32,000 nucleotides of DNA from Candidatus Saccharimonadota bacterium (GCA_020632335.1 JACKFV010000001.1:570001-602000), one strand, 5' to 3'; positions 8,642 through 27,322 are shown, counted from the stretch's first letter. Made by a program: numbers and translations. The notes: generated from the sequence alone by a model not told the origin.

Positions 8642-9670
8642 CTAGAGTACTTCCCAGTAGCTCACGCTGGCGATGAGGGCCTGCCCGTGGGCTTGTGGGT
8701 GGGTGTCGTCGCTCAGCACCAGGGTATTCTCCCCACGCTGTAGTGCCGGGAAGCCGCTACTCTGCGGGTGGAGGAGCTCTGGCCGCGGCGTACCATTGAG
8801 CAGTACGGTGCCGGTATCCCCCAGGATGCTGAGGGTGTCGGTGGGGCCCATGGCGTGCTGGAGCTGCACAAAGTCTCCACTCTCCAGGTGGCTTATGGTC
8901 AGGTGCCCGCCTACACTGTAGCTATGCTGGTAGCCAGGGGCGTGCGGCGGGAGGCTCTGGGGGCAGACCCATGTGGGGTCTACGGTGATGGTGATACTGA
9001 GAGGTAAGCGGAGGGCACTGCTGCAGTGCTCTATGGTGATGGTGAGCGGATTCCAGACGTCGCTATACTGCGCGACGGAGAGAGGGCGCGGCTGCCCAGT
9101 ATCCTCGGCCGAGAGCTGCAAACCGCCTACAGAGCCCTCACGCAGGGTAGTGGTGATGGGGTTTTCTCCCACATATATAGCGGGGTTACAGGTGCTCAGC
9201 GTCACCGAGAAGGGCGTCAGACAGGGGGTCAGCTGGTCGATGACGGGGAGGAAATCCTGCACCCGGGCCTGGCAGTGGAGGTGCCTGCCGCGGTGGTCCT
9301 CCCACTGGAGCGTACGGGTGCCGTCATCCAACAGAGAGGGCACTGCCACCACTGAGAAGAGCGCATGCAGGTGCGCCATGCCAGCCTCTTGCCCCTGGGG
9401 GTCGTGGCTGCGTAGCTGGCCGTGGAGGGTGATGGTACGCTCGGCCAATGACGCAGGGCCAAAGTGACTCCCGTGCGTGAGCAGCGCGTCGCTCCCGGGG
9501 GTGTGGAGGTGCACGCGGTGGGGGTCAAACCCCGTGAGCGCAATGGCATAGCTGCCCTCTTCTCTGGTAATAAAGGCCTCGGTGCTGGTGTTGCAGGGGC
9601 TGTCTCCTTCTACTGTGCAGGGGGTCTGGAGGAGCTGCCCGTCAAATCGAAGCGAAGAGAGAAGGTACAT
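8642..9670 (-). CDS. Phage distal tail protein (Dit / Sipho_tail family)-like protein
   Basis: 342 aa. The N-domain pattern RTITLHGQLRS....HLHALFSV...TLQWEDHRGRHLHCQARV....PFSVTLSTCNPAIY matches the consensus layout of siphovirus tail-component proteins as I remember it. The C-terminal half LTISHLESGDFVQL...TLSILGDTGTVLLNGTP...FPALQRGENTLVLS resembles the second Dit domain. No search was run. Confidence 0.55.
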   Translation of the reverse strand: MYLLSSLRFDGQLLQTPCTVEGDSPCNTSTEAFITREEGSYAIALTGFDPHRVHLHTPGSDALLTHGSHFGPASLAERTITLHGQLRSHDPQGQEAGMAHLHALFSVVAVPSLLDDGTRTLQWEDHRGRHLHCQARVQDFLPVIDQLTPCLTPFSVTLSTCNPAIYVGENPITTTLREGSVGGLQLSAEDTGQPRPLSVAQYSDVWNPLTITIEHCSSALRLPLSITITVDPTWVCPQSLPPHAPGYQHSYSVGGHLTISHLESGDFVQLQHAMGPTDTLSILGDTGTVLLNGTPRPELLHPQSSGFPALQRGENTLVLSDDTHPQAHGQALIASVSYWEVL

Positions 9671-9690
9671 AGCGCGGAGAAAGTGCTACC

Positions 9691-9696
9691 AGTATA
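9691..9696 (-). promoter_or_regulatory. -10-like TATACT box upstream of the Dit-like gene (no clear -35)
   Basis: TATACT, then 20 nt, then ATG at 9670. Confidence 0.3.
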
Positions 9697-9797
9697 GTCT
9701 GGCGGGGATGGAGAACCTCACTTTTTCCTTAATGGAAATGATAATAATAAAAAGTCAAGAGGGAATGCGCTTGCTCTTTTATTTGCAGCATTTTGAT

Positions 9798-9825
9798 TTG
9801 ACACAGCCTATGGCGCCAATACTAT
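9798..9825 (+). promoter_or_regulatory. infA / ribosomal operon promoter
   Basis: TTGACA-N16-TACTAT, with a 26-nt leader to ATG 9852. Confidence 0.55.
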
Positions 9826-9851
9826 CGCGGGGCTTTTACATCTAAACGTGT

Positions 9852-10154
9852 ATGCCTTCTCATGACAATAATGTTCGGGTCCACGGTGAGGTCCTCAGAC
9901 CCTGTGGCTCCGGGCAATATGACGTCAGGCTCACCGGGCGGCAGATCATCGGGAATCGGGTAACCGACGACATCGTAGATGAGCTGCTGGTGGGGTATGA
10001 GATTAAGGCGTCTCCGGCAGGCAAACTCTCGGTCTACAACATCAAGATCGTGGAGGGTGATGAGGTCATTGTGGCGCTCAGCCCGGAAAATATCGCGTTT
10101 GGACGTATTGTGCGCCGTCTGCGGACAGATGACCACTCCTCCCACCGTAACTAA
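9852..10154 (+). CDS. infA: Translation initiation factor IF-1 with an internal insertion and C-terminal tail
   Basis: 100 aa. It aligns by eye to E. coli IF-1 (VRVHGEVLRP..YDVRL and KLSVYNIKIVEGDEVIVALSPENIAFGRIVRRL). About 18 extra residues, RQIIGNRVTDDIVDELLV, sit in the loop after beta-2. It occupies the first position of the rpmJ-rpsM operon. Confidence 0.85.
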   Translation: MPSHDNNVRVHGEVLRPCGSGQYDVRLTGRQIIGNRVTDDIVDELLVGYEIKASPAGKLSVYNIKIVEGDEVIVALSPENIAFGRIVRRLRTDDHSSHRN

Positions 10155-10160
10155 TCTCTT

Positions 10161-10334
10161 ATGAAAGTTCGTGCCTCAGTAAAGCCGGTATGTAAGCACT
10201 GCTACATCGTACGACGTGGCGGGCGGGTGTTTAACTTCTGCAGTGACCCGCGCAATGCCGGGCGGCACAAACAAGCCCAGAAGCGCGGTGTGCGCCTCAC
10301 CCCTAAGTTCCAGACCTACCGAACCACTGCTTAA
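10161..10334 (+). CDS. rpmJ: Ribosomal protein L36 (with C-terminal extension)
   Basis: Below the ORF-track size cutoff; my own translation is [57 protein letters not shown]. The first roughly 43 aa match the L36 zinc-ribbon pattern. Confidence 0.85.
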
Positions 10335-10344
10335 TTCTCTCCTT

Positions 10345-10716
10345 ATGCGTATTGCTGGCACGCTCATCCCTACCGAAAAGCGCCTCATCATTGCCCTCAC
10401 TTATGTGCATGGCATTGGGCCCAAACTCTCTGCGGACGTCTGCACCGCCACGGGCATAGACCCCAGCACGCGCGTGAAGGACCTCACGCCTGAGCAGCAA
10501 GACGCCATACTGGACGCCGTACAGGGCTATACACTGGAGTCTGACCTGCGCCGAGAACTTTCTCAGGATATCAAACGCCTGCAAGACATCGGTAGCTACC
10601 GTGGGTATCGGCATCGTCGTCGGCTGCCAGTGCGTGGTCAGCGGACGAAAACCAACGCCCGTACGCGTAAAGGGCGTGGTGCGGCCATCGCTGGTAAGAA
10701 GAAAGTCACCAAGTAA
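10345..10716 (+). CDS. rpsM: Ribosomal protein S13
   Basis: Internal start [26 protein letters not shown]... ends in ...[14 protein letters not shown]. The track ORF from 10216 overlaps rpmJ and is an artefactual extension. Confidence 0.95.
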
Positions 10717-10728
10717 CCCCTCCCTCCT

Positions 10729-11109: not shown

Positions 11110-11121
11110 CCTCTCTTTCTT

Positions 11122-11736: not shown

Positions 11737-11790
11737 TCCTGTGCGTGGGGTCTTTCTTCTTTACACACACTTTCTCTAGTCCTCCTCCAG

Positions 11791-12792: not shown

Positions 12793-12867
12793 ATCCCCTT
12801 TACAACTGAAGATTTATTGGTAGATATACACCGCATTGATACCCTCCCTTCCTAATTTGCCCGCGCT

Positions 12868-13221: not shown

Positions 13222-13225
13222 GCCC

Positions 13226-13669: not shown

Positions 13670-13679
13670 ATCTTTTTCT

Positions 13680-14078: not shown

Positions 14079-14108
14079 GAGAGCGGTGCTATTGGTTACC
14101 TCGAGAAG

Positions 14109-14136: not shown

Positions 14137-14167
14137 CGTATGGGACTAGAAAAGAAAAAATAGAGAC

Positions 14168-15239: not shown

Positions 15240-15551
15240 ATGAGCCAGCGGTTTCTTGTCCGGAATGAGGGGTTTACCTGCGTTATGTGCGGCGCGGAGA
15301 ACGGCCCAGCGGTGGGCACCTGCCGTGACCACTGCACGGAGTGTCTGGTGAGCCTGCATGTGGATCTCTCGCCTGGGGACCGTGCCAACCCCTGCCGGGG
15401 CATCCTGCAGCCCATAGGGGTGACCTGGCGAGGGGGGAGTATGGAGAGAATCCGCTACCAGTGCCAGCGCTGCCGGGCATTGCACGTTAACCGCATTGCG
15501 GAGGATGACTGCCGGCAGGCACTGCTGGCGCTGGCGGTGGAGCAGGGTTAG
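15240..15551 (+). CDS. RNHCP domain protein (Cys-rich zinc-ribbon-like)
   Basis: 103 aa. FTCVMCG....CRDHCTECLVSLHVDLSPGDRANPCRGILQP matches the RNHCP-domain layout (RNHCP replaced by RDHCT). Confidence 0.7.
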   Translation: MSQRFLVRNEGFTCVMCGAENGPAVGTCRDHCTECLVSLHVDLSPGDRANPCRGILQPIGVTWRGGSMERIRYQCQRCRALHVNRIAEDDCRQALLALAVEQG

Positions 15552-15922
15552 TTCCAGATGTCGCTGCTGTCTAGGTCGATGATATCGCCGCTCTGCTTGG
15601 CTTCCTCGGCTTCCCGGATCTTTTGCTGCACGCTCTGCCTTTCCTCGGCCATGCGCAGCGCTTCCTCGGTGCTTATCTCCCCCACGGCGGCCTGGGTCTC
15701 TCCCTGCTTCTCCTGCTCCAGTATCTGCTGGAGTTTGGCTACTTGCTCTTGTTTCATCACCCGGATGAGGTTAAACCAGTACTGGCGCTCGGCGTCGTTC
15801 ATCGCACGAGAGCGGATGATGAGCTGCACCAGCCGTGGGTTACTCTCCAGCAGCTGTGGGTCTATAGAGAAATCAGCGGTGCTCTTGCCAGATGGCGTAC
15901 GGAGCGAGGCGAGATCAGCCAT
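15548..15922 (-). CDS. Hypothetical acidic coiled-coil protein
   Basis: 124 aa. Contains MNDAERQYWFNLIRVMKQEQVAKLQQILEQEKQ. Leaderless-type promoter TTGACC-N17-TATACT-N6-ATG. Its stop overlaps the RNHCP gene end. Confidence 0.6.
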   Translation of the reverse strand: MADLASLRTPSGKSTADFSIDPQLLESNPRLVQLIIRSRAMNDAERQYWFNLIRVMKQEQVAKLQQILEQEKQGETQAAVGEISTEEALRMAEERQSVQQKIREAEEAKQSGDIIDLDSSDIWN

Positions 15923-15928
15923 AGTGCC

Positions 15929-15957
15929 AGTATAGGGGGTTTGCAGCGTGGGGTCAA
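15929..15957 (-). promoter_or_regulatory. Leaderless-type promoter of the coiled-coil protein gene
   Basis: TTGACC-N17-TATACT, then 6 nt, then ATG at 15922. Confidence 0.55.
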
Positions 15958-15980
15958 TCAGAGCCGTGGGGGCAGGAGAG

Positions 15981-15986
15981 TATACT
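15981..15986 (+). promoter_or_regulatory. -10-like TATACT box upstream of the portal-like gene (no clear -35)
   Basis: TATACT, then 19 nt (gccggcgtaatctcctcct), then ATG at 16006. Confidence 0.3.
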
Positions 15987-16005
15987 GCCGGCGTAATCTC
16001 CTCCT

Positions 16006-16233
16006 ATGCTCCCGCACCTTTGTCCTCGGCTCCAGCGCGACCACCGCTATCGGGCGCGCATGCTGCGTATGGCACGGGGGGAATTTGGCGATTTTTTTGA
16101 CACCACCCTGGTGGCAGATTCCCTGGCGAGTTCGCCGCTGTTTCCTCGGCTGGAGGCGATTTTGCGCCGGAAGAAACAAGACGTACACCGGGCATTTCTT
16201 CCTCTGTTTTCTAACTACTTTCAGGCGTATTAG
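16006..16233 (+). CDS. N-terminal fragment of phage portal-like gene (ends at in-frame TAG 16231..16233)
   Basis: 75-aa ORF in the same frame (frame 1) as ORF 16243..17319, separated from it only by TAG plus 3 codons. The ATG sits in the same CU-rich context (taatctcctcctATG) as the ribosomal genes. Combined length of about 437 aa would be portal-sized. Confidence 0.4.
   Translation: MLPHLCPRLQRDHRYRARMLRMARGEFGDFFDTTLVADSLASSPLFPRLEAILRRKKQDVHRAFLPLFSNYFQAY
16231..16233 (+). other. In-frame amber (TAG) codon splitting the portal-like reading frame
   Basis: Codons read ...ttt cag gcg tat TAG cgc atc atc GTG agt ttt..., with the same frame on both sides. Confidence 0.9.
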
Positions 16234-16242
16234 CGCATCATC

Positions 16243-17319
16243 GTGAGTTTTACGCTGGGGGCTCCTCTGGTGCCACTGCTGGAGGATCACGCCGAGAAGC
16301 CCTTCACCCAGTGGCTGGCGGCCCATAGTATGCAAGACGTGCTGGAGGCGCAGCTGCGCGACACCGTGGCCGGAGGCATGGTGGGGATGCGCCTGCGGTG
16401 GGAGGGGGAGGAGATTGTCCCAGAGCCCTTCAGTGCGGAGCAGTACTACCCCGCACGCCACCTGCTGTATGGGTATGACGCCGCGGAGGCCTGTCTACTC
16501 TGGCAGCGGGAGCACGAGAATGGTCAGCTGGGGCACTACCTTATGCACTACGCCGCGGAGGAGACGGGCTATCACCTCCACTATGGTGATGTGCAGCTGG
16601 GGGAGCAGGGGCAGTGCCAGGCGCCTGTGCCGCTGCACCGTGAGGAGAAGCCCTACCCCGTACTGCCGCTGGTGGTGATGCATAACCTCAGTACGGATGC
16701 CTATGGCCTGGGGGTGAGTAGCTTTACGCATGGGGTGGGGCTGGTGCAGGCCATTGCGCTGCTGGAGACCATTGCACTGATAGAGATCCAGAGCCACTTC
16801 ATGAGTAAATTGGCTATCCCCATGACGCACATCCACCATGTGCAGCGGATGGAGAAACTGAGTGAGGGTGGAGGGTTTGACCCCAGCTATTACATCTTCC
16901 CGGATGATGGGAGCATCCCCCAGTATGTGCAGAAGGACAACGCTTTCTTTACCCCGCTGTTTGACCTCATCGCTACGCTGAAGCAGGAGCTCAGTCTGCA
17001 GTGGGGGGTGCCGCTCAGCCTGCTGATGCGAGAGACCACCGGCACCGAGAAAGTCGAGCTGAGCCAGGTGCGTCGGCGGCCATTTGTGCAGATGATCCGC
17101 CAGTACCAGCGGCGGGTGCAGCGCTATCTCACGCAGATGGCTGGGGTGTACTACCGTCTGCTGGGGTACGAGGAAACCCCCGTGTTGCGCTGGCAGTGGG
17201 GGGAGGTGCTGGCGCCGGATAGTTATAAGGAGACCGAACGTATCCTCAGCCAGCTGGAGGCCGGGGTGATATCGAAGACCGAGGCGCGGCAGCTACTGGG
17301 TATGGAGGGGCAGGCCTAG
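16243..17319 (+). CDS. Phage portal protein-like (main body and C-terminus)
   Basis: 358-aa ORF with a GTG start per the track. The C-terminal layout LSLQWGVPLSLLMRETTG...RWQWGEVLAPDSYKETERILSQLEAGVISKTEARQLLGMEG resembles portal (SPP1 gp6 / HK97-type) wing and crown regions. No search was run. Confidence 0.6.
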   Translation: MSFTLGAPLVPLLEDHAEKPFTQWLAAHSMQDVLEAQLRDTVAGGMVGMRLRWEGEEIVPEPFSAEQYYPARHLLYGYDAAEACLLWQREHENGQLGHYLMHYAAEETGYHLHYGDVQLGEQGQCQAPVPLHREEKPYPVLPLVVMHNLSTDAYGLGVSSFTHGVGLVQAIALLETIALIEIQSHFMSKLAIPMTHIHHVQRMEKLSEGGGFDPSYYIFPDDGSIPQYVQKDNAFFTPLFDLIATLKQELSLQWGVPLSLLMRETTGTEKVELSQVRRRPFVQMIRQYQRRVQRYLTQMAGVYYRLLGYEETPVLRWQWGEVLAPDSYKETERILSQLEAGVISKTEARQLLGMEGQA

Positions 17320-17356
17320 CCCTGCGGCCGTTGCGGCCAGGAGGTGAGACGAGAAA

Positions 17357-17381
17357 GGCTCCCGCTGTGGGGGCTTTTTTT
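17357..17381 (+). terminator. Intrinsic terminator after the portal-like gene
   Basis: The sequence ggctccc(gctgt)gggggct forms a 7-bp stem including 2 G-U pairs. It is followed by ttttttt, about 40 nt after the TAG stop. It lies between convergent genes. Confidence 0.6.
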
Positions 17382-17384
17382 GTA

Positions 17385-18092
17385 CTAGGCCAGAGGGAGC
17401 ACGAGCACGGCCTGCGCGCCGCCACTGGGCTTATTACTCAGGCTGAAGCTGCCATGATGGATGCGGGCTATTTTATCCACAATGCTGAGCCCCAGGCCAC
17501 TACCGGCGGTGTCCTCCAGCGGTTTGCCCAGGTGGGCGAGTACGGCATCGGGGACGCCAGGGCCGTTATCTTCTATGATGATGGTGATCTGCCGTGGGTC
17601 GCGCCGTATGGTGAGGGTGATGGTACTGCCCGCGGGGGTATAGGTAGCGGCGTTGTGTAGCAAGATGCTCAGCGCTTCGATGATGAGATCTTTGACCACC
17701 ACAGCCACGGCGGGAGCGGTGCTGGTGCGGTCGTGGTAGAGGAAGGTATGGCGGGAGTCTTGCCCCTGGGTACTGGCATAGAGGTCTTTACACAGCAGGT
17801 CTATCTCGATGTGCTGGCGTTCGTAGTGCACGTCGTGGTTCAGTGACGAGAGGAACATCATGCGTGAGAGCATGTGGCTGATGGTCTTGCACTGCTCTTG
17901 GATGCTCTCTTGGCGCTCTGCAGTGGGGTCTTCTCTATATCGGTTGACGTTGAAGAAGAGGCCAATGAGTGGATTCTTCAGCTGGTGCGTACACAGCCGG
18001 AAGAGCGAGGTTTGCTCCTCCAGCTGCTCCATCAGGCGCTTATTATCCTGCAGGAGGCGTTGGTACTCTTGAGCGAGGGCGTTCATCTGCAT
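17385..18092 (-). CDS. Soluble sensor histidine kinase (HisKA + HATPase_c, no TM or sensor domain, no adjacent response regulator)
   Basis: 235 aa. H-box CTHQLKNPL, N-box LLHNAATYTP, G1 IEDNGPGVP, G2 GSGLGLSIV. An N-terminal coiled coil is the only other region. Confidence 0.85.
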   Translation of the reverse strand: MQMNALAQEYQRLLQDNKRLMEQLEEQTSLFRLCTHQLKNPLIGLFFNVNRYREDPTAERQESIQEQCKTISHMLSRMMFLSSLNHDVHYERQHIEIDLLCKDLYASTQGQDSRHTFLYHDRTSTAPAVAVVVKDLIIEALSILLHNAATYTPAGSTITLTIRRDPRQITIIIEDNGPGVPDAVLAHLGKPLEDTAGSGLGLSIVDKIARIHHGSFSLSNKPSGGAQAVLVLPLA

Positions 18093-18098
18093 ACCCCT

Positions 18099-18127
18099 AT
18101 GCTAGCGTCTGTGCTCACGGTGGTCGA
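18099..18127 (-). promoter_or_regulatory. Leaderless-type promoter of the histidine kinase gene
   Basis: TCGACC-N17-TAGCAT, then 6 nt, then ATG at 18092. Confidence 0.45.
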
Positions 18128-18147
18128 GCCATAATCTGCTAAAACTT

Positions 18148-18552
18148 TCATGAAGTTTCCAGAGCGGCTCTGATGCGCTCTTGCATAGCGGTGAGCTCCT
18201 CAGGGGTGGCGTCATGGGATGGGTGGTGGAGGGCCTCTCCGCTGGAGGCCGGAATGAGGTGGTAGTGCGCGTGGGGCACGTCAAAACCCTGGACCATACT
18301 GGCGATGCGCTGGGCTCCGGTAGCGAGCAGGAGTGCGGGGCTGAGCAGCTTAGCGGTGCGGAAGATGGCGCTGTAGTAGGGCTCTGGTACGTCGTAGAGG
18401 TGGTCGACCTCACACCGGGGGATGACCAGCGTATGCCCCGGGGTGATGGGCGAGCGGTCGAGGAAGGCCACGGTATAGTCGTCTTGGTACACGATGGCGG
18501 CGGGGATTTCTCCCGCGATGATACGGCTGAAGATACTGGGCATATGCTGCAT
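18148..18552 (-). CDS. HIT-family nucleotide hydrolase
   Basis: 134 aa. CIF-like SIFSRIIAGEIPAAIVYQDD and histidine triad HAHYHLIP. Confidence 0.9.
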   Translation of the reverse strand: MQHMPSIFSRIIAGEIPAAIVYQDDYTVAFLDRSPITPGHTLVIPRCEVDHLYDVPEPYYSAIFRTAKLLSPALLLATGAQRIASMVQGFDVPHAHYHLIPASSGEALHHPSHDATPEELTAMQERIRAALETS

Positions 18553-18558
18553 ACTCTC

Positions 18559-18586
18559 TTTGTACTGGGGTTTTGTCTCTTGGCAA
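18559..18586 (-). promoter_or_regulatory. Leaderless-type promoter of the HIT gene
   Basis: TTGCCA-N16-TACAAA, then 6 nt, then ATG at 18552. Confidence 0.5.
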
Positions 18587-18608
18587 CTCTCTGGCTACCC
18601 TGTAGTAT
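18580..18608 (+). promoter_or_regulatory. Leaderless-type promoter of the PfkB kinase gene
   Basis: TTGGCA-N17-TAGTAT, then 6 nt, then ATG at 18615. Its -35 shares the palindromic TTGGCAA with the divergent HIT promoter. Confidence 0.5.
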
Positions 18609-18614
18609 AGAGCC

Positions 18615-19658
18615 ATGATGGACGTGCTTTCTATCGGTTCGCTCACGGTAGATACCTTCTACTGGGGCGCAGACCTCCACCACACGGTAGAGCAGGTGAA
18701 CCCCGAGGAGCGTGCCTTTGTGCTGCCGGTGGGGGGCAAGATAGGTATAGAGCGGGTATACGAGTTCTGTGGTGGGGGCGCGGCTAATACCAGCATCGGC
18801 TTTGCCAAGCTCGGGCTGCGAGCGGGGGTGCTCAGCAGCATTGGTGAGGATCATCACGGGCACTTCATCACCCGCACGCTGGACCACTATGGCATAGACC
18901 AGACCTGCCTGCAGCGTGTGCCGGGGGGGAGCTCCAGCCAGAGTGTGGTGCTGATGGCCGAGGACGGGGGCCGCACGGTGCTCCACCACAAGATGGAGAG
19001 CCCGCCGGAGGCGTCGCTTTTCCCTCCGGAGACCGCTATGCGCTGTGTGTACCTGGGCCACGTGCGGGAGGAATCGGAGGGGCTCATCCCTCGGGTAGTG
19101 GCCTGGAAGCAGCAATATGAGGGGATCCTGGGGTGGAATCCGGGCTCTACTCAGCTGCGTAAGGGCTGGGAACACTGGCAGGAGATCCTCCGCCACACAG
19201 ATGTGCTCATTCTGAATGTAGAAGAGCTCGAGCAGCTCACGCGGATGAAGGCTCCTGTGGTGGGCGCCTCTGTGCTGCTGGAGGAGATAGAGCTGCTCAC
19301 CGTGCCAGATGGGCGGCCCGCCACAGTACTACGCGACGTACGGGCTATGGCAGCGCTGCTGCTGGGGCAGGGGCTGGGGGCGCTGCTGGTGACGGATGGT
19401 GGTGCTGGCGCGCAGCTCTATACCGCGGCGGGAGCGGCCTGCTATGCCCCCGGTACGAGCCAGCCGCCGGTGAGCACCCTGGGCGCGGGTGACAGCTGCA
19501 GTGTGGGGTATATAGCCGCGCTGCTGCACGGAGAGCCCCCTGCCATGGCGATGCGCTGGGCGGCGATAAATGCCGCGGGTACGGTACAGATCTTTGGGGC
19601 GCAGGAGGGGCAGCGCACGCTGGAGGAGATGAGGGCGCTCACCGGTGCGTCACTGTAG
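18615..19658 (+). CDS. PfkB-family carbohydrate kinase
   Basis: 347 aa. Contains GGGAANTSIGFAKLGL and the C-terminal GAGDSCSVGYIAALL motif. Confidence 0.85.
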   Translation: MMDVLSIGSLTVDTFYWGADLHHTVEQVNPEERAFVLPVGGKIGIERVYEFCGGGAANTSIGFAKLGLRAGVLSSIGEDHHGHFITRTLDHYGIDQTCLQRVPGGSSSQSVVLMAEDGGRTVLHHKMESPPEASLFPPETAMRCVYLGHVREESEGLIPRVVAWKQQYEGILGWNPGSTQLRKGWEHWQEILRHTDVLILNVEELEQLTRMKAPVVGASVLLEEIELLTVPDGRPATVLRDVRAMAALLLGQGLGALLVTDGGAGAQLYTAAGAACYAPGTSQPPVSTLGAGDSCSVGYIAALLHGEPPAMAMRWAAINAAGTVQIFGAQEGQRTLEEMRALTGASL

Positions 19659-19664
19659 GGGAGG

Positions 19665-20606
19665 CTAGAGCATCCCGGCGACTTTGCCCACAAAGGCCAC
19701 ATACAGCACCAGCAGCGCGGCGCCCTCCAGCAGGGGGACTTTGCGGTCCCACATGACGAAGATAAACGCGATGGTAGCCAGCAGGAAGAAGGGAATCCCG
19801 ATGGCAAGCGCGGTAGGAGACGTCGTCACGGTGCCCAGCAGCGCCGGTATGGGCACTACCATGAGGAGGTTGAAGATATTGGACCCAAAGACATTCCCCA
19901 GCGCTATACCCGTCTGCCCGCGGTGGCTGGCCTGCACACTCACGATGATCTCCGGTAGACTGGTGCCCACCGCTACCAGCAGCATGGTGAGCGTCTCAGA
20001 GGCGATGCCCAACAGCCCGCTGAGCGTCTGCAGGGCGTCTACGGTGAACTTCCCGCCGAGGAAAATCCCTACGCAGGAGCCGATGAGAATGAGTACGGTG
20101 CTGGGTTCTATGCGGTTGTGGGTCTCTACGTTCTCAAAGTCCTCCGACACACTGGTGAGCGTATAGGCCAAGAAAAACCCAAAGAACACCAGGCTCAGCA
20201 GGGCCTCCCATAGGCTGAAGCTCCCGTCCATAATGAAGATAACAAAGAGCCCCGAGCTAATGACCATGAAGGGTACGTCGATGTCGACAATGTCTTTCTC
20301 CAGCATCAGCCGGCGCGAGACAATCGCCGAGATACCCACCACCAGCAAGCAGTTGGCGATGTTACTCCCGATGACGTTATCTATCGCAAAGGACTGCATA
20401 GCTGGGTCGCCCTGCAGGGTGGCAATGGTGGAGGTAATGAGCTCTGGCAGACTGGTGCCGATGCTGGTGATGAGCGCGCCGATGAGGAAGCTGCTCAGCC
20501 CGATAGACCGCCCGATGCGCTCTGCGGCGGCGGTGAACCAGTCGGCGCTCTTCAGCAGTAGCCCCAGTGCTGCGATGAAGATGCCCGTCCAGAGGAGAAT
20601 TAGCAT
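19665..20606 (-). CDS. Ca2+/cation antiporter (CaCA, YrbG-like)
   Basis: 313 aa, polytopic. Duplicated alpha-repeat motifs GTSLPELITS and GTSLPEIIVS, plus GNVFGSNIFNLL. Confidence 0.9.
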   Translation of the reverse strand: MLILLWTGIFIAALGLLLKSADWFTAAAERIGRSIGLSSFLIGALITSIGTSLPELITSTIATLQGDPAMQSFAIDNVIGSNIANCLLVVGISAIVSRRLMLEKDIVDIDVPFMVISSGLFVIFIMDGSFSLWEALLSLVFFGFFLAYTLTSVSEDFENVETHNRIEPSTVLILIGSCVGIFLGGKFTVDALQTLSGLLGIASETLTMLLVAVGTSLPEIIVSVQASHRGQTGIALGNVFGSNIFNLLMVVPIPALLGTVTTSPTALAIGIPFFLLATIAFIFVMWDRKVPLLEGAALLVLYVAFVGKVAGML

Positions 20607-20613
20607 GCCCTGC

Positions 20614-20641
20614 AGTCTAAGCCCCAGAGGCGGTAGAGCAA
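20614..20641 (-). promoter_or_regulatory. Leaderless-type promoter of the CaCA exchanger gene
   Basis: TTGCTC-N16-TAGACT, then 7 nt, then ATG at 20606. Confidence 0.45.
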
Positions 20642-20648
20642 GCGCTTC

Positions 20649-20657
20649 TGCTACAAT
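20649..20657 (+). promoter_or_regulatory. Extended -10 (TGcTACAAT) upstream of the Tal-like gene
   Basis: TGcTACAAT, then 23 nt (CU-rich), then ATG at 20681. No -35 is recognisable. Confidence 0.4.
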
Positions 20658-20680
20658 GGGCCTAGTTTTCTCCCCCTGGC

Positions 20681-21727
20681 ATGCTCACGCTTCACCTCCT
20701 CAACGCCCAGCTGCAGCCCACTCGCACGCTGCCCATTACCCGTATGCAGCTGCGGGAGGGGCTGCATGGGGAGCTGAGCGGGAGCGTGACGGTGCCGCTG
20801 CATGCCTGCACAGGGGACGCACCAGCGCCCGTGACGGCGCTCTGGCAGCCGGTGCGGGTTCTCTATAGGGCCAGTACTAGCCCCCAGGCGGAGGAGCTCT
20901 GCACGGGGTTTCTCACCCAGGTGGTGGCCAGTAGTGAGGGGCTGACGCTCTCTCTCATCGGGCTGCCTGGCTATCTGCAGCGCTGTGTGGTGCCCGTGGG
21001 GGCGGTGGGGGAGCAACCCCTGCGGGAGCGACTCCAGCAGCTGTGGACGCAGATAACGCAGATGCTGCCCACCGTGCTCCGCTTGCAGAGCGATATAGAG
21101 GCCCTCAGTACCAGCACCGTGTACCCCGGCATGAGCCTCTGGGACGTTATCATCCCCTGGCTGCAGGTGGGGGCGGTACTGCGTATGCATCTGCCGGATA
21201 TCTCCCTCTGGCAGACGCCACCACTGCTACAGTGCCCGGGGCTGCGGTTCTCGGGCATGAGCGCCGGGGGGGACACCCTCACTTTTCCTATCACTCGGCA
21301 GAGTGACGCGCTGCTGGCGGCCAACTACGCTGTGGTACAGGGGGATAGCTCGCTCTACCGTACGGCGGGGCTGAGCCCGCTGCTGCTGCCGCTGGGGGCC
21401 TTCTGGCGGATAACGGGCACGGGGCAGCTGCCCCAGCAGGCCGAGGCGCTGCTGACCCCCCGCCTGGAGCCCACGCGCAGCACTACCGTTACCCTCCACC
21501 CCCATCAGCTCCCCCAGCACTACCCGGTGGGGGCGGTGACGTCTTTCTCGCTGCGGACGGGCTGGGAGGGACTCACGGCGGAGGAGCGGGTGACCATCAC
21601 GGAGCGGACGCTCACGCTGCGGGAGACGGGGCTGACGACTACCCTCACCCTGGTACCACAGGGGACGGTACCACTGCTGGAGGCTTCTCTGGAGGCCAGA
21701 CTGCGTGTGGTGGAGGGGAGTTCTTGA
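20681..21727 (+). CDS. Phage tail hub / Tal N-terminal (Prophage_tail, gp27-like)-like protein
   Basis: 348 aa. The layout LHLLNAQLQPTRTLP.ITRMQLREGLHGELSGSVTVPLH ... SLWDVIIPWLQVGAVLRMH ... GLRFSGMSAGGDTLTFPITRQSDALLAANYAVVQG resembles the structural N-terminal part of siphovirus tail-associated (Tal) proteins. There is no enzymatic C-terminal domain. By-eye call only. Confidence 0.45.
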   Translation: MLTLHLLNAQLQPTRTLPITRMQLREGLHGELSGSVTVPLHACTGDAPAPVTALWQPVRVLYRASTSPQAEELCTGFLTQVVASSEGLTLSLIGLPGYLQRCVVPVGAVGEQPLRERLQQLWTQITQMLPTVLRLQSDIEALSTSTVYPGMSLWDVIIPWLQVGAVLRMHLPDISLWQTPPLLQCPGLRFSGMSAGGDTLTFPITRQSDALLAANYAVVQGDSSLYRTAGLSPLLLPLGAFWRITGTGQLPQQAEALLTPRLEPTRSTTVTLHPHQLPQHYPVGAVTSFSLRTGWEGLTAEERVTITERTLTLRETGLTTTLTLVPQGTVPLLEASLEARLRVVEGSS

Positions 21728-21759
21728 GATTTTCGCTTTGTGCAGCGCCTAGTGGTGGC

Positions 21760-21765
21760 TATACT
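21760..21765 (+). promoter_or_regulatory. -10 box of a leaderless-type recJ promoter
   Basis: TATACT, then 6 nt (ggaggc), then ATG at 21772. Confidence 0.45.
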
Positions 21766-21771
21766 GGAGGC

Positions 21772-23454
21772 ATGACCCCCACCCACAGCGGCAAGACCTG
21801 GGCCAGCGCGGCGCCCCTTATCCAGCTCTCTGAGCTCCATACCGTGCTGCAGGAGAAGTACCACCTCACGAATCCTGCAGCGGTGCGCAGCTATTGCAGT
21901 CCTTCTCTGGGGGACCTGCACAGCCCGTGGACTATGGCGGATATGGACAGTGCCGTGCAGCGCATCACTACTGCTATAGAGCGCCAGGAGCGGATCATGG
22001 TATATGGGGATTTCGACACCGATGGGATCATGAGCACCGTACAGCTCTATGATGGTTTGCGGACGCTGGGGGCGGCGGTCAGCTACCGCATCCCCCACCG
22101 GGTGGCGCATAGCCATGGCCTGCACTATGACCTGCTCGACGAGATTATCAGTAAGGAGGTGAAGCTGCTCATCACCTGTGACTGCGGGAGTAACGACGCG
22201 GCTGAGGTGGCCTACATAGCGGAGCGAGGCATAGACGTCATCATCACAGACCACCACCACCCGGACCCGGCTCGTCGGCCTGTGGCGGCTACCGCTATGG
22301 TGAACCCGCACCAGCCCCACTGCGCCTACCCGTATAAGCATCTCTCGGGTAGCGCGGTGGCGTTTAAGCTGCTCTCAGCGCTGGGGGAGAGGCTGCTCAG
22401 TGACCAAGACGAACTGGCCGAGTACCTCACCCGCTACCTGGAGCCCTGCGCCATAGGCATCATCGCAGACTGTATGCCGCTGACGGGAGAGAACCGCACG
22501 CTGAGCATCGGTGGCCTGAGCCTCATGCAGCAGAGCCAGTGGGAGGTGATAGAGGAGATACTGCTGCTGACCAATACTCACCCAGAGACGATAGACGAGG
22601 ACACGGTGCGATTCCAGATAGCGCCACGGCTGAATGCTGCTAGCCGCCTGGGGGACGTCTACACGGCGGTCAAGGCCTTCACGGATACCGGTGAAACCAT
22701 GCGCCGGGCGCTGTCGCAGCTGGATACCTGGAACGAGCAGCGCAAACGCCTGACCGACATCGCGCTTACCCAGTCGTTCAGCCAGGTGGTGCCGGGGGCT
22801 CCGTGGCAGCTGCTGGTGCACGAGGAGTGGATCCCGGGGATTCTCGGGCTCATTGCCAGTAAGCAGAGCGAGCGGCTGCAGGTGCCGGTCATCGCCTGCC
22901 GGCTGAATGAAGACGGTACGGTACAGGCCAGCTGCCGTGCGCCGGAGGGGTACAGCATCATCGCCGCGCTGCAGACGTGCCCGGGGTTCTTTACTCGTGT
23001 GGGGGGGCATGCGGGGGCTGCAGGATTCCAGACCACCCGTGGCCAGCTGGACGCTATAGAGCAGGCGCTGCAGGGCTACTTTGCCGCGTATACACCCCCA
23101 CCGCTTACTCAGGCGGTAGACGGTATCCTCCCCGCCACGCTGCTGACGGTGTCCCTCCTGCCCCTGCTGCGGGAGTACCAGCCTTTTGGCCTGGGGGCTG
23201 CGGCGCCACAGTGGCTCTTGCCCGGGTGCCAGGTGCTGGCCACGCAGCTTATGGGGAGTGATAAAACCCACCTGAAAGTCACGGTGCTGTATGACGGGGT
23301 GGAGAGAGAGCTGCTGCACTTCTTTGGCCGAGATGACGAGGGGCAGTTCCCCCCGGGGAGCGAGAAAGACATGCTGGTGACGGTGGGGCGCAGTAGCTTC
23401 CGGGGGGAGGAGCGGCTGGCGCTGTACCTGGTGGACTGGCGAGAGGGGACGTAA
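21772..23454 (+). CDS. recJ: Single-stranded-DNA-specific exonuclease RecJ
   Basis: DHH motifs DFDTDGI, ITCDCG and ITDHHHP, plus a DHHA1-like GGHAGAAG. I prefer ATG 21772 over the track's TTG at 21724 because TATACT lies exactly 6 nt upstream, matching the window's leaderless pattern. Confidence 0.92.
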   Translation: MTPTHSGKTWASAAPLIQLSELHTVLQEKYHLTNPAAVRSYCSPSLGDLHSPWTMADMDSAVQRITTAIERQERIMVYGDFDTDGIMSTVQLYDGLRTLGAAVSYRIPHRVAHSHGLHYDLLDEIISKEVKLLITCDCGSNDAAEVAYIAERGIDVIITDHHHPDPARRPVAATAMVNPHQPHCAYPYKHLSGSAVAFKLLSALGERLLSDQDELAEYLTRYLEPCAIGIIADCMPLTGENRTLSIGGLSLMQQSQWEVIEEILLLTNTHPETIDEDTVRFQIAPRLNAASRLGDVYTAVKAFTDTGETMRRALSQLDTWNEQRKRLTDIALTQSFSQVVPGAPWQLLVHEEWIPGILGLIASKQSERLQVPVIACRLNEDGTVQASCRAPEGYSIIAALQTCPGFFTRVGGHAGAAGFQTTRGQLDAIEQALQGYFAAYTPPPLTQAVDGILPATLLTVSLLPLLREYQPFGLGAAAPQWLLPGCQVLATQLMGSDKTHLKVTVLYDGVERELLHFFGRDDEGQFPPGSEKDMLVTVGRSSFRGEERLALYLVDWREGT

Positions 23455-23482
23455 AAATACCGGGGAGTTTATCCACCGGTAT
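23452..23482 (-). terminator. Hairpin plus short U-run after the PBP / small-ORF unit
   Basis: Perfect 7-bp stem ataccgg/ccggtat with a 12-nt loop. Only UUUU follows on the minus strand, so it is weak to moderate. Confidence 0.4.
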
Positions 23483-23624
23483 GGGGAGAAGGGTCTTCTG
23501 GCTCTTCTAGATATGGTTCTAGATAGGAGAATCCCCCTCGGTAACGGGCGCAAAAATCTTCGTCATTAGCTACATTTGTTCGTAGTGCTGCTAGTGTTTC
23601 CAATAATTCTTTCATTTTTTTCAT
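23469..23624 (-). CDS. Possible 51-aa small protein downstream of the PBP gene
   Basis: Below the track cutoff; my translation is MKKMKELLETLAALRTNVANDEDFCARYRGGFSYLEPYLEEPEDPSPHTGG. It lies between the PBP stop and a minus-strand hairpin followed by a U-run. No family recognised, so it could be non-coding. Confidence 0.25.
   Translation of the reverse strand: MKKMKELLETLAALRTNVANDEDFCARYRGGFSYLEPYLEEPEDPSPHTGG
23505..23525. repeat. Tandem 9-mer TTCTAGATA x2 (3-nt spacer), each containing the palindrome TCTAGA
   Basis: The sequence ttctagata tgg ttctagata encodes YLEPYLE if the small minus-strand ORF is real. Otherwise it is a possible dimer-binding site. Confidence 0.5.
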
Positions 23625-23684
23625 AATTTTTTTCGTAATACAATATTTCTTCCACCCTCTTTTTTATGAGTGTTTTGTCAATAG

Positions 23685-26105
23685 TTACTCTCGAGAAAAT
23701 CCTCCCGCAGACGTATTCAGCAGTTCACGACTGGGAGTCAGCCGGCCATTACGCAGCTCCACTGCGGGCGTGGTCTCCTCACTGGCTGACCGCAGAGGGA
23801 CGCTGCTGGGCACCGCTTCGGAGCTCTGCATCTCTCGCCCTAGGGCCTCCCGGGTGGGGATGCGCGCTGCGCTCGGCTCGGTGACGGTGGGCGTAGGGGG
23901 GGATTCTACCGGAGAGCTACTGCGGACACTCCTGGTGGTGGCGGTGCCCTGGTAGGCGCCGCGGTAGGACTGCCCCAGCAGATAGGGGTAGAAGCCGCCT
24001 TCGGTCTTCTCCTGGCCGTTATTCAGCGGCAGGGTGTAGGTCTTCTGCAAGTCCGCCCCCACGGCGTGGGAGATACCGTCTGTCATGGTCACGCCCTCTG
24101 GCATGCGGAACCCCGTATACGCATGCGGGTAGACGCTATAGAAGGTCCGCACTACCTCCTGCCAGATGTCCCCCAGGCTCAGCGCCGCAAAGGCCCCCTC
24201 CTTCAGCGCGCTGCCGTCGGTGTTGCCTCCCCAGAGCAAGAAGGTATGCGTGGGCGTCCAGCTGATGATGAGGTTATCCACCGGGCGTAGCTGGCCGTCG
24301 ATGCGCTTGGTGCTGGTGCCGGTCTTCACGGCCATGTTGTAGTCTGGCACGGTGACTTTCTCGCCCCATATCCCGGGGGAGCGCAGGCGCGTGTCGCTCA
24401 GCATATCGCTCATGAGGAAGGCCGTGACGGGGTCATAGTCGCGCACTTGGCTGCTCTGGCAGGGGTTTGCTATTGCTTCCCCGGTGAGGGTTTCGGCCTC
24501 CAGCAGCGGGCACAGCGGTCGCCACTGCGCGCTCCCCAGTGTGGCCATGGCACTGGCAAAATCCTGCAGCCGTAGTGGTACCGTCCCCAGGCTGATCGTC
24601 CAGCCGAACTGGTGCTCGGGGTAGCTGGTGTTGATATCCAGCCCGAAGTGCTCGTCGAGGTAGCTTCGCACCGCTGCCTCGCCTCCGGCCATATACACGG
24701 CCTTGGCGGCTGGTACATTCCGGCTCCAGCTCAGTGCCTGTCGCAGTGCCATATTGCCGCTGTAGGTCCCGTCAGAGTTCTGTACCGAGCGCTTATCTCC
24801 TCGGAAGATAACGGGCAAGTCCGGCACCAGCGTACTGGGGCTATAGCCCTGCTGCAGCGCCGCGGCGTATACCAGGGGTTTGATGGCTGACCCGGGCTGC
24901 CGACGCGATGTCAGCATATTCACCTGGCCGGCTATGTCCTCATTCCAGAAGGCCTTGGACCCAATGTACACAATGGGCGAGCGCGTGCTATTCTCGAGGA
25001 TGAGCAGGCTGACGTTCTCGATGCCCCAGTCGGTATAGAGCTGTGCGGTGTGCTGGGTCAGCAGGTTATAGAAGTAGCGCTGCAGCGGCGCCGAGACCGT
25101 AGTGCGTACGCGCAGACCCCCCGGGTACTGCTTACGGGTGATGCCCTGCTCCAGCAGCCAGCGCTTGACGTACTCCTGCCAGTGCTGGAAGAGATCCCGC
25201 GTGTAGGGCCTGCGTGGCGGCAGGGTGATGTCTCCTAGTGCTGCCCAGGTCTTGCTGGTGCGGCTGAGCGGCCAGCGGTAGTGCGCCGCGGTACGCAGCA
25301 GCACGGTCTCTATCCGGCTGAGGGTGTAGTCCGTATGCGTGAAGGGCGTGCAGCTGTACTGCAGCGCCTGGCTCTCGTCGGTGCAGCCACCCAGCCAGTC
25401 GGCCACCACGGGCGATCGCAGGGCTTCATTGGGGTTTTGCGGAATGGTACTGAGCACCAGCGCCTCAGCGTCACTCAGCTGCTTGGGGGAGCGCGAGAAG
25501 TAGGTCTCGGCGGCGGCCTTCACGCCATAGATCTGCCCGCCATAGGGCGCTACATTCAGGTACATCTCGAGGATATCGTGCTTGGAGTGGGTGGATTCTA
25601 TCCCCAGCGCGATCACCACTTCTCGCAGTTTCCGCTCCAGCGACCGCTCGTCGGTGAGGAACATCTTGCGCGCCAGCTGCTGGGTGATGGTACTGGCCCC
25701 CTCGCTGATGCCCCCGGAGAGGTAATTAGTCACCGCGGCCCGCGCTATACCAATGGGGTCAAACCCCGGATGAACATAGAACCGTTTGTCCTCGGCCTGT
25801 ACGGTGAACTGCAAGAGCGACTCGGGCAGCTGCTCCAGGTCTATCCACTCGCGGTTGGCGTCGGTCACCTGGCGGTAGATTTCTTCCCCGAAGGTATCGG
25901 TAATGATGACCGGGTACTGCATATCGGTGCGGTCTAGCAGCTGCCCCCGGACGAAATCCTCCATAAAGTACCACACAAAGCCCGCTACCGTCAGCACCCC
26001 CAGTAGCAGCATGATGAGCCCGAAAATCAGCAGCCCCCGCACAGCCCGCCACCCCCACCACAGGGGGCGTGTAGCACAGAGAGCATCGTGGTCGAGGACT
26101 TGCAT
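23685..26105 (-). CDS. Class A penicillin-binding protein (transglycosylase/transpeptidase, PBP1A-type)
   Basis: Glycosyltransferase motif EDKRFYVHPGFD. Transpeptidase motifs SAIKP (SxxK), SWSRN (SxN) and KTGTS. An N-terminal TM helix is present. I chose the start at MQVLDHD (26105); the track extension to 26273 crosses a terminator and abuts the capsid gene. Confidence 0.92.
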   Translation of the reverse strand: MQVLDHDALCATRPLWWGWRAVRGLLIFGLIMLLLGVLTVAGFVWYFMEDFVRGQLLDRTDMQYPVIITDTFGEEIYRQVTDANREWIDLEQLPESLLQFTVQAEDKRFYVHPGFDPIGIARAAVTNYLSGGISEGASTITQQLARKMFLTDERSLERKLREVVIALGIESTHSKHDILEMYLNVAPYGGQIYGVKAAAETYFSRSPKQLSDAEALVLSTIPQNPNEALRSPVVADWLGGCTDESQALQYSCTPFTHTDYTLSRIETVLLRTAAHYRWPLSRTSKTWAALGDITLPPRRPYTRDLFQHWQEYVKRWLLEQGITRKQYPGGLRVRTTVSAPLQRYFYNLLTQHTAQLYTDWGIENVSLLILENSTRSPIVYIGSKAFWNEDIAGQVNMLTSRRQPGSAIKPLVYAAALQQGYSPSTLVPDLPVIFRGDKRSVQNSDGTYSGNMALRQALSWSRNVPAAKAVYMAGGEAAVRSYLDEHFGLDINTSYPEHQFGWTISLGTVPLRLQDFASAMATLGSAQWRPLCPLLEAETLTGEAIANPCQSSQVRDYDPVTAFLMSDMLSDTRLRSPGIWGEKVTVPDYNMAVKTGTSTKRIDGQLRPVDNLIISWTPTHTFLLWGGNTDGSALKEGAFAALSLGDIWQEVVRTFYSVYPHAYTGFRMPEGVTMTDGISHAVGADLQKTYTLPLNNGQEKTEGGFYPYLLGQSYRGAYQGTATTRSVRSSSPVESPPTPTVTEPSAARIPTREALGREMQSSEAVPSSVPLRSASEETTPAVELRNGRLTPSRELLNTSAGGFSRE

Positions 26106-26114
26106 ACAGCCACT

Positions 26115-26142
26115 ACGGTAGAGAAATGTTGTCGAGAGGCAA
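26115..26142 (-). promoter_or_regulatory. PBP gene promoter (very short leader)
   Basis: TTGCCT-N16-TACCGT, then 9 nt, then ATG at 26105. Confidence 0.4.
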
Positions 26143-26216
26143 TACTTCGGGGCTTGCTTTGTTCTCTTTTTTCGTCTGGTGTGGGTATAGTGTATGCTGC
26201 GCTGACGAACTATAGT

Positions 26217-26241
26217 AAAAAACCCCACCGCGGTGGTGGGG
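26217..26241 (-). terminator. Intrinsic terminator immediately after the capsid-like gene
   Basis: On the minus strand, CCCCACC(accgc)GGUGGGG is followed by UUUUUU, about 30 nt after the stop at 26273. Confidence 0.75.
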
Positions 26242-26272
26242 TTTCTCTGGCGTGGGGGAAGGGCGCTCAGCA

Positions 26273-27322
26273 CTAGAGGGTGAAGACCTGCTGGCTCACG
26301 AAGGCCTGTGGCCGGGCAAACACCGGCGCGCCGTAGTAGGAGACGAAGTAGGCGTCTCGGCGGGGGTTATCGGCTGTGAGGATCTGGAAGTAGCGGCCGT
26401 AGGTCTCGCAGCTGCGGTCGTCTATATTGCGCGCGTCATAGCGGAGCACCGGGCTACAGCTGCCGTGCTGGCCCATCACTACCACCTGCCCGTCGGGGAT
26501 GAAGCGTACCGTACTCCCGCTCCCATCGGTATAGAAGCCGTCATACACGTGCAGCTCCATCCCCATGAGCGTCCCCATAGATTCGCCACGCAGGGTGTAG
26601 TCGCACAGGCAGTTGCCCAGGCTCTCGCGGACTTGGTCGGTCTGCAGGAGCGTACTGAAGGTCAGCTGATTCATGAGGATCTTGCTGGCCCGCATGCCGG
26701 TATCTCGCAGCGCTAGCTTCATTCGCTCTATGTCCTCTATGGGGTGGGCGGTGGCCACGGCGGTCCATTGGTCGCCCGCTACCAGGGGGCTGAGCACCTG
26801 CGTGCCGGTCTCCACCGTGTGGGTGCCGCCATTCTGGCTGGTGTAGGTGATGGTGCCGAAGACCCCCTCCCAGAAGGGTTTCTCGAGGAAGAGCAGCTGG
26901 CGGTCAGCCATAGCCTTCACGATGTGCTCGATGAGGTCTACCGCGCGTTCTTCCTCGGCGTGGCTGCAGCTGGGCGACTGCGCATTGCACACCACGCGTA
27001 GCTCATCAGCGTGCAGGGTGCGGGTTTCTTTGTACCCCACCAGGCCGAATTCCTGGCTCTCGGGGGTGACGCGCAGTTCTATCTCGTTACCCTGGGAGTT
27101 GTCGTCTACTATAGAGGGCACCCCGCTGCTCTGCTGGTACTGCAGGAGCGTGGCGTAGAGGTGGTCGGTTTTCTTGGGCGCGCCCATCAGCTGTATGCCC
27201 AGGTAGTCACTAGCGGAGGAATTGCTCAGCCCATCATAGAGCGCGCTGGCACAGTCGGGCTCCAGCAGCTGCGCCAGGCCACACTGGTGCACGATGCCGG
27301 AGAGAGTAGGGGAGGGAGTCAT
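26273..27322 (-). CDS. Phage major capsid protein, lambda gpE family-like (HK97 fold)
   Basis: 349 aa. By eye it runs parallel to lambda gpE along its C-terminal two thirds. GDQWTAVATAHPIEDIERMKLALRDTGMRASKILMNQLTF corresponds to TEWSKRD..YDPTDDIEAY. ELHVYDGFYTDGSGSTVRFIPDGQVVVMG corresponds to VAIVVYSGQYVENGVKKNFLPDNTMVLGN. YFQILTADNPRRDAYFVSYYGAPVFARPQAFVSQQV corresponds to YPKNWVTTGDPAREFTMIQSAPLMLLADPDEFVSVQL. Confidence 0.7.
   Translation of the reverse strand: MTPSPTLSGIVHQCGLAQLLEPDCASALYDGLSNSSASDYLGIQLMGAPKKTDHLYATLLQYQQSSGVPSIVDDNSQGNEIELRVTPESQEFGLVGYKETRTLHADELRVVCNAQSPSCSHAEEERAVDLIEHIVKAMADRQLLFLEKPFWEGVFGTITYTSQNGGTHTVETGTQVLSPLVAGDQWTAVATAHPIEDIERMKLALRDTGMRASKILMNQLTFSTLLQTDQVRESLGNCLCDYTLRGESMGTLMGMELHVYDGFYTDGSGSTVRFIPDGQVVVMGQHGSCSPVLRYDARNIDDRSCETYGRYFQILTADNPRRDAYFVSYYGAPVFARPQAFVSQQVFTL

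Follow-up and report, generated by a model that had tools for sequence, protein, structure and literature searches.

Can a bacterium keep the genes of a phage particle one at a time, each alone among essential genes, without their being the debris of a prophage? The question is raised by a 32,000-nt stretch of GCA_020632335.1 (JACKFV010000001.1:570001-602000), hereafter the window, analysed over its full length and numbered from its first letter, which lies in a 630,865-bp contig labelled Candidatus Peribacteria bacterium at NCBI (locus-tag prefix H6771). A first-pass annotation, made from the sequence alone, had pointed out four genes of phage structural type in this stretch, lying singly among housekeeping genes. 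Two of them, for a major capsid protein (MCP) and for a distal tail protein (Dit), are bona fide virion genes, intact, solitary and host-like in composition. The explanation that we prefer, and to which we give about an even chance, is that the window holds long-resident, dispersed virion genes of siphovirus origin, kept as separately transcribed chromosomal genes among core genes. The candidates are listed below, the portal-like one in two parts (ORF, open reading frame; aa, amino acids; AF2, AlphaFold2).

8642..9670, minus strand: distal tail protein (Dit) gene, 342 aa, intact; PF22768, phrog_5577, AF2 and Foldseek
16006..16233, plus strand: N-terminal fragment of the portal-like gene, 75 codons, ending in an in-frame TAG at 16231-16233
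16243..17319, plus strand: portal-like ORF, 358 aa, 100% identical to the NCBI hypothetical protein H6771_02740; weak portal matches
20681..21727, plus strand: fourth ORF, 348 aa, 100% identical to the NCBI hypothetical protein H6771_02765; coding signature, shared promoter/leader
26273..27322, minus strand: major capsid protein (MCP) gene of the lambda gpE family, 349 aa, intact; PF03864, phrog_29

Identity and setting of the candidate genes

The gene at 8642-9670 encodes a siphovirus distal tail protein, as had been proposed. It matches the Pfam family SPP1_Dit (PF22768; 2.7e-9, 37.5 bits against a cut-off of 25) and the minor tail protein family phrog_5577 (5e-7). An exhaustive HMMER search brought together 19 clusters of homologues; all 15 aligned homologues match SPP1_Dit, and four of the 15 match Sipho_tail (PF05709). 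An AF2 model computed from the homologue alignment (pLDDT 77.8) has as its top Foldseek matches the Dit proteins of monocin, NF5, Douge, SPP1 (gp19.1), TP901-1 and 80alpha, with a TM-score of 0.77 for SPP1 gp19.1 and E values of 5e-12 to 4e-8 for the other five.

The product of the gene at 26273-27322 is, judging by its sequence, a major capsid protein of the lambda gpE type, and here too the initial assignment was borne out. Its match to PF03864, Phage_cap_E (3.6e-17, 62.9 bits against a cut-off of 22.9), extends over profile positions 47-326 of 329, and that to the major head protein family phrog_29 reaches 1e-19; the NCBI protein 100% identical to it carries the name 'major capsid protein [Candidatus Peribacteria bacterium]'. 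Among 5.8 billion proteins only two clusters of homologues were found, 55% and 47% identical over full-length alignments, and relatives among phages are distant (25-30% identity). Scans of IMG/VR with the MCP and the Dit alignments found no relative of either, those of INPHARED only distant ones, and a metagenome scan with the MCP alignment nothing beyond a contig already known. For none of the four candidates did a sequence search of PDB return anything useful, and NCBIfam gave no match. The MCP gene has hisS and the gene of the class A penicillin-binding protein PBP1A as neighbours, with a terminator between it and each of them; no remnant of a gpD-like gene was found upstream of it.

The other two assignments fared less well. 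The span 16006-17319, initially taken for a full-length portal-like gene, is split by a TAG at codon 76 into stretches of 75 and 358 aa, so that full length had to be given up; the likeness to portal proteins stands in the form of weak, concordant matches. Three family matches of the longer ORF, to phrog_3753 (0.002), phrog_533 (0.003) and PF04860 (0.14; 11.7 bits against a cut-off of 39.1), are collinear and all below threshold, and 10 of its 12 weak tblastn matches are phage portal proteins, all the best ones included, with those of Proteus phages on top (E 0.1). The N-terminal fragment has a GC content at third codon positions (GC3) of 0.63, below that of the rest of the gene.

The fourth ORF, lying 11 kb from the Dit gene and on the opposite strand, has a clear coding signature (GC3 0.83; correlation of relative synonymous codon usage, RSCU, r 0.86). 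Its reading as a Tal/gp27-like tail hub had to be abandoned, no significant match to Tal/gp27 families, PDB or phage proteins being found; the best family match is to phrog_1885, at only 0.029, NCBIfam gave no match, and no homologue was found among the 5.8 billion proteins or in IMG/VR. A single-sequence AF2 model (pLDDT 32) was of no use. The ORF is tied to the other three genes solely by the promoter/leader described below.

The dispersal of the four genes is real. Pfam confirmed the housekeeping genes around and between them: dnaE, rnc, nusB, mscL and a SnoaL-like gene; the ribosomal operon infA-rpsM-rpsK-rpsD-rpoA-rplQ-rplM-rpsI; genes for a WecG/TagA glycosyltransferase, an RNHCP protein, a histidine kinase, HIT and PfkB; and those for a Na/Ca exchanger, RecJ, the class A PBP and HisS. 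As previously noted, the window lacks the usual marks of an integrated phage: no integrase or terminase was found among the ORFs scanned with Pfam, PHROG and NCBIfam, and a repeat search found no att-like or insertion sequence (IS) repeats. There are no tRNA genes and no Rfam matches in the window, and none of 10 other ORFs scanned belongs to a structural PHROG family. In GC, GC3 and codon usage the four genes stay within the range of their window neighbours, and by the last two measures they are indistinguishable from them, again as first described. A contiguous, compositionally foreign, decaying prophage is thus excluded by dispersal among core genes and by host-like composition; an integrated cryptic prophage is likewise not what core operons in between, the lack of integrase and repeats, and host-like codon usage describe.

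The arrangement does not stem from a chimeric assembly, a danger that the first-pass annotation had itself raised. The junctions mscL-SnoaL-Dit (window 7729-9099), coiled-coil-portal-kinase (15534-17772, the portal TAG included) and exchanger-ORF-recJ (19038-22184) recur at 99.9-100% identity in short-read data assembled independently (Logan SRR12358675/6 and one contig from ENA). Scans of genome collections with MCP and RecJ found no close relative, the best RecJ match being 32%, from Anaerolineales.

Relatives of the capsid and tail genes

In what follows, W denotes the organism of the window, A that of the samples JGI 3300012936 and ENA ERZ27251039, and B that of ENA ERZ22157849. The samples that yielded the only two clusters of MCP homologues are also the source of the two nearest Dit homologues (P0007 and P0008), and in both A and B samples the two genes lie on separate contigs, each alone among core genes. 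In A, the MCP gene follows a gpD-like decoration gene (phrog_49, 4e-4; PF02924, 0.005), and this pair lies between three serine recombinases on one side and pilC and dprA on the other, while the Dit gene is found among genes for RNase Y, an ABC ATPase, Def, LGT and a pilin. In B, the MCP gene has def, an M23 peptidase gene and one further gene around it, and the Dit gene is flanked by alaS-like and UvrD-like genes and by murG. GC (0.34-0.35) and coverage (2.6-2.9x) agree between the B contigs; on the A contigs, it is the core genes that have a common GC, of about 0.5. For the two genomes the GC values are about 0.48 (A) and 0.34 (B).

The two proteins diverge in parallel. Identities for the pairs W-A, A-B and W-B are 54.5, 54.5 and 47.2% for MCP, and 39.5, 37.5 and 32.4%, in the same rank order, for Dit. 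All copies in the three organisms are full length and free of frameshifts, and the GC3 of the genes tracks that of the host, with 0.78-0.83 in W, 0.51-0.54 in A and 0.18-0.24 in B. Synonymous sites are saturated (pS 0.78-0.99) and the nonsynonymous divergence, dN, is 0.41-0.89, so that dN/dS is not computable. Co-occurrence of MCP and Dit in A and B, their full length and their host-matched GC3 support the proposal, already advanced from the window alone, of long residence and retention by selection. In full-text searches of the literature, no description of such genes came up for Peribacteria or for other bacteria of the Candidate Phyla Radiation.

Some observations concern the surroundings of these relatives. 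Beside the gpD-like/MCP pair of A, in the stretch 1-9146 of its contig (L001), lies an island of low GC (0.30-0.39), which carries a type IIG restriction-modification gene and encodes an 851-aa AAA_21 protein, and is followed by the recombinase genes, three large paralogues of up to 71% mutual identity. Distant Dit homologues of about 33% identity are found in the contigs L016 and L019 (NCBI GCA_020631075.1 and GCA_020629095.1), in regions with almost no Pfam or PHROG matches, containing very long proteins (>1300 and >1900 aa) as well as F5_F8_type_C and H_lectin proteins; such regions may encode a cell-surface system or else a phage tail module that has diverged. Of 43 genes neighbouring the Dit homologues in L016, L019 and L017, none belongs to a structural PHROG family. 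A pair of genes of no known family is kept near Dit in two unrelated contigs, at 7223-8367 of L017 (minus strand; 241 and 119 aa) and 2061-3157 of L016 (plus strand; 224 and 136 aa), with mutual matches at E 3e-6 and 8e-6; the pair, which has no homologue in the window, may represent further members of the same phage-derived set.

Organisms W and B recur in wastewater-type samples: a further independent metagenome (L021; ENA ERZ28655329, WANG18-1 SAMN08389179) holds a sequence identical to window 8118-8672, and L023 (ERZ964752, wastewater) holds the Dit locus of organism B too. The SRR12358675/6 project, to which the source samples belong, is likewise one of activated sludge or wastewater.

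Promoters, leaders and terminators

A common pattern precedes all four genes, consisting of a TAYAMT box, 19-23 nt with a CU-rich stretch at their end and an ATG, which is in each case the first ATG of the ORF. The signals of the candidate genes are as follows.

9671..9703, minus strand: Dit promoter/leader, GCCAGAC-TATACT, 20 nt CU-rich, ATG
15981..16005, plus strand: promoter/leader of the portal-like gene, TATACT, 19 nt CU-rich, ATG at 16006
20652..20680, plus strand: promoter/leader of the fourth ORF, TACAAT, 23 nt CU-rich, ATG
27323..27357, minus strand: proximal promoter/leader of MCP, GCCAGGG-TATACT, 22 nt CU-rich, ATG
17347..17385, plus strand: hairpin and U7 terminator after the portal-like gene, common to the convergent histidine kinase gene
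26211..26247, minus strand: intrinsic terminator directly after MCP, 13-bp stem and U6 (dG -21 kcal/mol, z -4.3)
27385..27542, minus strand: perfect TTGACA-17-TATAAT promoter (27542-27514), then a structured RNA with a 12-bp hairpin at its end (27411-27385)

Dinucleotide shuffles lead one to expect 0.10 instances of the pattern in the window, where five are present; four of the five fall on the first ATG of the four genes, compared with none of 30 other gene starts (Fisher 2e-5); the motif having been defined post hoc on these same genes, such p-values are optimistic and indicative only. Among 406 pairs of 40-nt upstream regions, those of Dit and MCP are the most similar, and the pairs of MCP with the fourth ORF and with the portal-like gene are both within the top eight. 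The sequence GCCAGNNTATACT is confined, in the window, to the upstream regions of Dit and MCP. In A and B, the homologues (gpD/MCP and Dit) are preceded by a related box and an RGCR..TTT leader. Taken one by one the same elements do occur at host genes, either as a short-spaced TATACT or as a CU-rich leader. The four window genes are probably co-regulated.

That several of the genes have a terminator or promoter of their own, as had been remarked, holds for the MCP and the portal-like gene; for the latter, the 71-nt stretch 17318-17388 that contains the terminator folds with a dG of -35.4 kcal/mol (z -3.7).

The promoter at 27542-27514 lies just past the hisS terminator, and the strongly structured RNA that follows it, about 120-185 nt long (z -3.9), is upstream of the proximal promoter of MCP. 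This RNA has no match in Rfam; it could be a new small RNA, or a regulatory or long leader for MCP. The fifth instance of the pattern (window 23637-23884, plus strand) precedes a 72-aa ORF on the strand opposite the 3' end of the PBP1A gene; it may mark a genuine small gene or an antisense transcript, or have arisen by chance.

Translation initiation in W looks unusual. A TATACT box lies only 6-12 nt before the ATG, as in leaderless mRNAs, at recJ (21772), hisS (29113) and the gene of a 124-aa coiled-coil protein (15548-15922, with its start at 15922), and the starts of rpsK, rpsD, rpoA, rplQ and rpsI have CU-rich leaders in place of Shine-Dalgarno sequences. Two apparent operons with overlapping genes were rejected, the overlap being in both cases a product of the longest-ORF convention: recJ starts at 21772, after its own TATACT box, and does not overlap the fourth ORF, and PBP1A starts at 26104, after the terminator of the MCP gene.

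Weighing the explanations, and other features of the window

In the explanation that we prefer, a siphovirus-type phage would have entered the bacterial lineage long ago, and its genes would since have been retained, scattered among core genes, the four of them being maintained by purifying selection and regulated together. Since joint excision or packaging is closed to them, they would supply their products in trans, and the cell itself would make use of the phage-like particle, or partial particle, so formed; this might be a gene transfer agent (GTA) or another type of domesticated particle. From the retention of a head gene together with a tail gene in three divergent genomes one may infer that the two still have a joint role in some particle. 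As the portal-like gene is split or inactivated by the TAG, the particle may be incomplete in W, unless the 358-aa product is made by re-initiation, possibly at the GTG found 9 nt past the stop. When the set is compared with a GTA, 32 kb contain MCP, Dit and a broken portal-like gene, and no terminase; as to vertical inheritance, the two genes co-occur in three genomes with parallel divergence and host-matched GC3, at saturated dS. That the W genes would build a GTA-like particle is a further step, and the portal stop, the lack of a terminase or other virion genes in the window and the lack of homologues of two ORFs all count against it. A broader version, in which a whole virion gene set was domesticated in a Peribacteria-like ultra-small lineage as single-gene units distributed over the chromosome under a common promoter/leader regulon, and a particle is still made, GTA-like or serving contact with host cells, is possible, although we lean against it. 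The main uncertainty is the presence of the remaining virion genes elsewhere in the genome.

Several results weigh against the preferred explanation. The portal TAG is not a sequencing error of one assembly, being found also in an independent Logan contig (L006), the portal homology of 16243-17319 is weak, and no homologues of this ORF were found in the 5.8 billion proteins or in IMG/VR; the fourth ORF is without homology in the searches described above. The 32 kb yielded no terminase gene, and none for a protease or scaffold, an adaptor, a tube, a tape measure protein or lysis. In A, the position of the capsid gene next to three serine recombinases fits the remnant of an integrated element, and the attribution of the A contigs to one organism, and of the B contigs to one organism, is drawn from sample, GC and coverage only. 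The promoter motif was fitted to the genes that it is meant to connect, and divergence under selection could have taken place in phages rather than in cells.

Some of these points recur in an explanation by neutral wreckage, which we consider unlikely: one siphovirus prophage would have integrated here, inversions and deletions would have scattered it, and the surviving ORFs would have no function. The premature stop in the portal-like gene and the lower GC3 of its N-terminal fragment would be signs of decay, few virion genes are left, all of them within 19 kb, the gpD-like/MCP pair of A has the three large serine recombinases and a low-GC defence island beside it, and the two genes near Dit in L017, with their homologues near Dit in L016, look like pieces of a former module. 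MCP and Dit, however, are intact, full length and solitary in three genomes with GC3 from 0.2 to 0.8 and saturated synonymous sites, and neutral ORFs are not expected to outlast such divergence, least of all in small genomes of about 1.2 Mb (PMC4736985). Complete amelioration of composition, private promoters and terminators together with a shared leader motif, and essential operons between the genes are also hard to reconcile with wreckage. An origin by artefact, that is by a chimeric assembly or bin of phage and host DNA or by chance profile matches, can practically be dismissed: the source is a metagenome-assembled genome and the portal and 'Tal' calls are weak or absent, but the three reproduced junctions, a codon usage identical to the host's and MCP and Dit matches far beyond chance all speak to the contrary.

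It is also improbable, in our judgement, that capsid and Dit were recruited separately for different cellular jobs, the one as a shell or compartment, the other as a surface or adhesion ring, with no joint particle. HK97-fold proteins have become encapsulins, which provides a precedent, the portal is broken in W, and the distant Dit homologues of L016 and L019 are found among giant and lectin-domain proteins with no neighbour of structural PHROG type; against this stand the co-occurrence and parallel divergence of MCP and Dit in all three genomes, upstream regions that are the most similar in the window, the gpD-like decoration gene still present beside MCP in A, and the lack of any cargo-like gene next to the MCP gene. 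Far less probable again is an F-type tailocin, a tail-only bacteriocin, with scattered genes, to which capsid and portal would be unrelated leftovers. The best structural match of the Dit model is indeed the Dit of monocin, an F-type tailocin, but phage Dit proteins match about equally well, no tube, tape measure, receptor-binding or lysis genes flank the Dit gene, and no gene is better conserved (47-55% identity) than that of the capsid, which has a promoter/leader in common with Dit.

Dispersed virion genes kept by the cell, as we prefer to read the window, resemble several known systems in part, and the nearest model in terms of function is the GTA. Known GTAs have their structural genes clustered. 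In those of the RcGTA type, found in Rhodobacter capsulatus and further Alphaproteobacteria, the host inherits vertically, and itself controls, genes for head and tail that stem from a phage, match its own composition and cannot mobilise themselves, as may be true of the W set; a few accessory loci of RcGTA, too, lie outside the main cluster. However, the roughly 15 structural genes of RcGTA lie together in a single contiguous cluster that includes terminase, portal, protease and a capsid of HK97 type (PF05065), whereas in W each recognisable gene stands alone, the capsid is a lambda gpE-type protein, a terminase was not seen and a stop interrupts the portal-like gene. Remnants of cryptic or defective prophages share with W an incomplete virion set, the lack of integrase and terminase nearby and one gene with a nonsense mutation, but are normally contiguous, compositionally distinct and lineage-specific; the W genes are dispersed and ameliorated, have host-type signals of their own and are kept in three divergent genomes. 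F-type tailocins such as Listeria monocin and pyocin F contain a Dit of siphovirus type, as W does; their genes, in contrast, form one cluster without head genes and with tube, tape measure, receptor-binding and lysis genes, none of which were seen in W. Encapsulins are, like the W MCP, encoded by a solitary cellular gene for an HK97-fold shell protein; the family of the W protein is PF03864, outside the encapsulin families; no cargo gene adjoins the MCP gene, and in A there is a gpD-like decoration gene beside it. The polydnaviruses (bracoviruses) of parasitoid wasps, with virion genes that are dispersed, non-packageable, active in trans and under shared regulation, offer a functional analogy only: they are eukaryotic, derived from nudiviruses and unrelated to W, and particle production has been demonstrated there, while in W only genes have been read.

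Domesticated particles of bacteria, such as GTAs, tailocins and contractile injection systems, are known as gene clusters, and clusters are what genome-mining tools look for. If virion genes can remain co-regulated while fully dispersed, such systems are being systematically missed by these tools. Very small, host-dependent genomes of the Candidate Phyla Radiation would then spend coding capacity on phage-derived machinery, which could serve DNA exchange or host contact, and, should a whole virion set prove to be maintained, bacteria would have an equivalent of the polydnavirus genes that lie dispersed in wasp genomes. The shared promoter/leader motif gives a concrete handle by which a dispersed particle regulon can be tested genome-wide.

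Long antisense ORFs, typical of high GC3, are a trap for longest-ORF gene calling in the W genome. Four plus-strand ORFs at 57-1744 (108-155 aa each, GC1 about 0.8) were considered as head-tail adaptor genes and rejected as antisense artefacts; the true genes there are on the minus strand. One, which crosses the window start, encodes a secreted protein in which PG_binding_1 occurs three times and a 3D domain is matched weakly, below threshold; the other encodes a 139-aa membrane protein. Similarly spurious are two long ORFs on the minus strand, at 18102-19196 (364 aa), antisense to the PfkB gene, and at 22375-23553 (392 aa), antisense to recJ.

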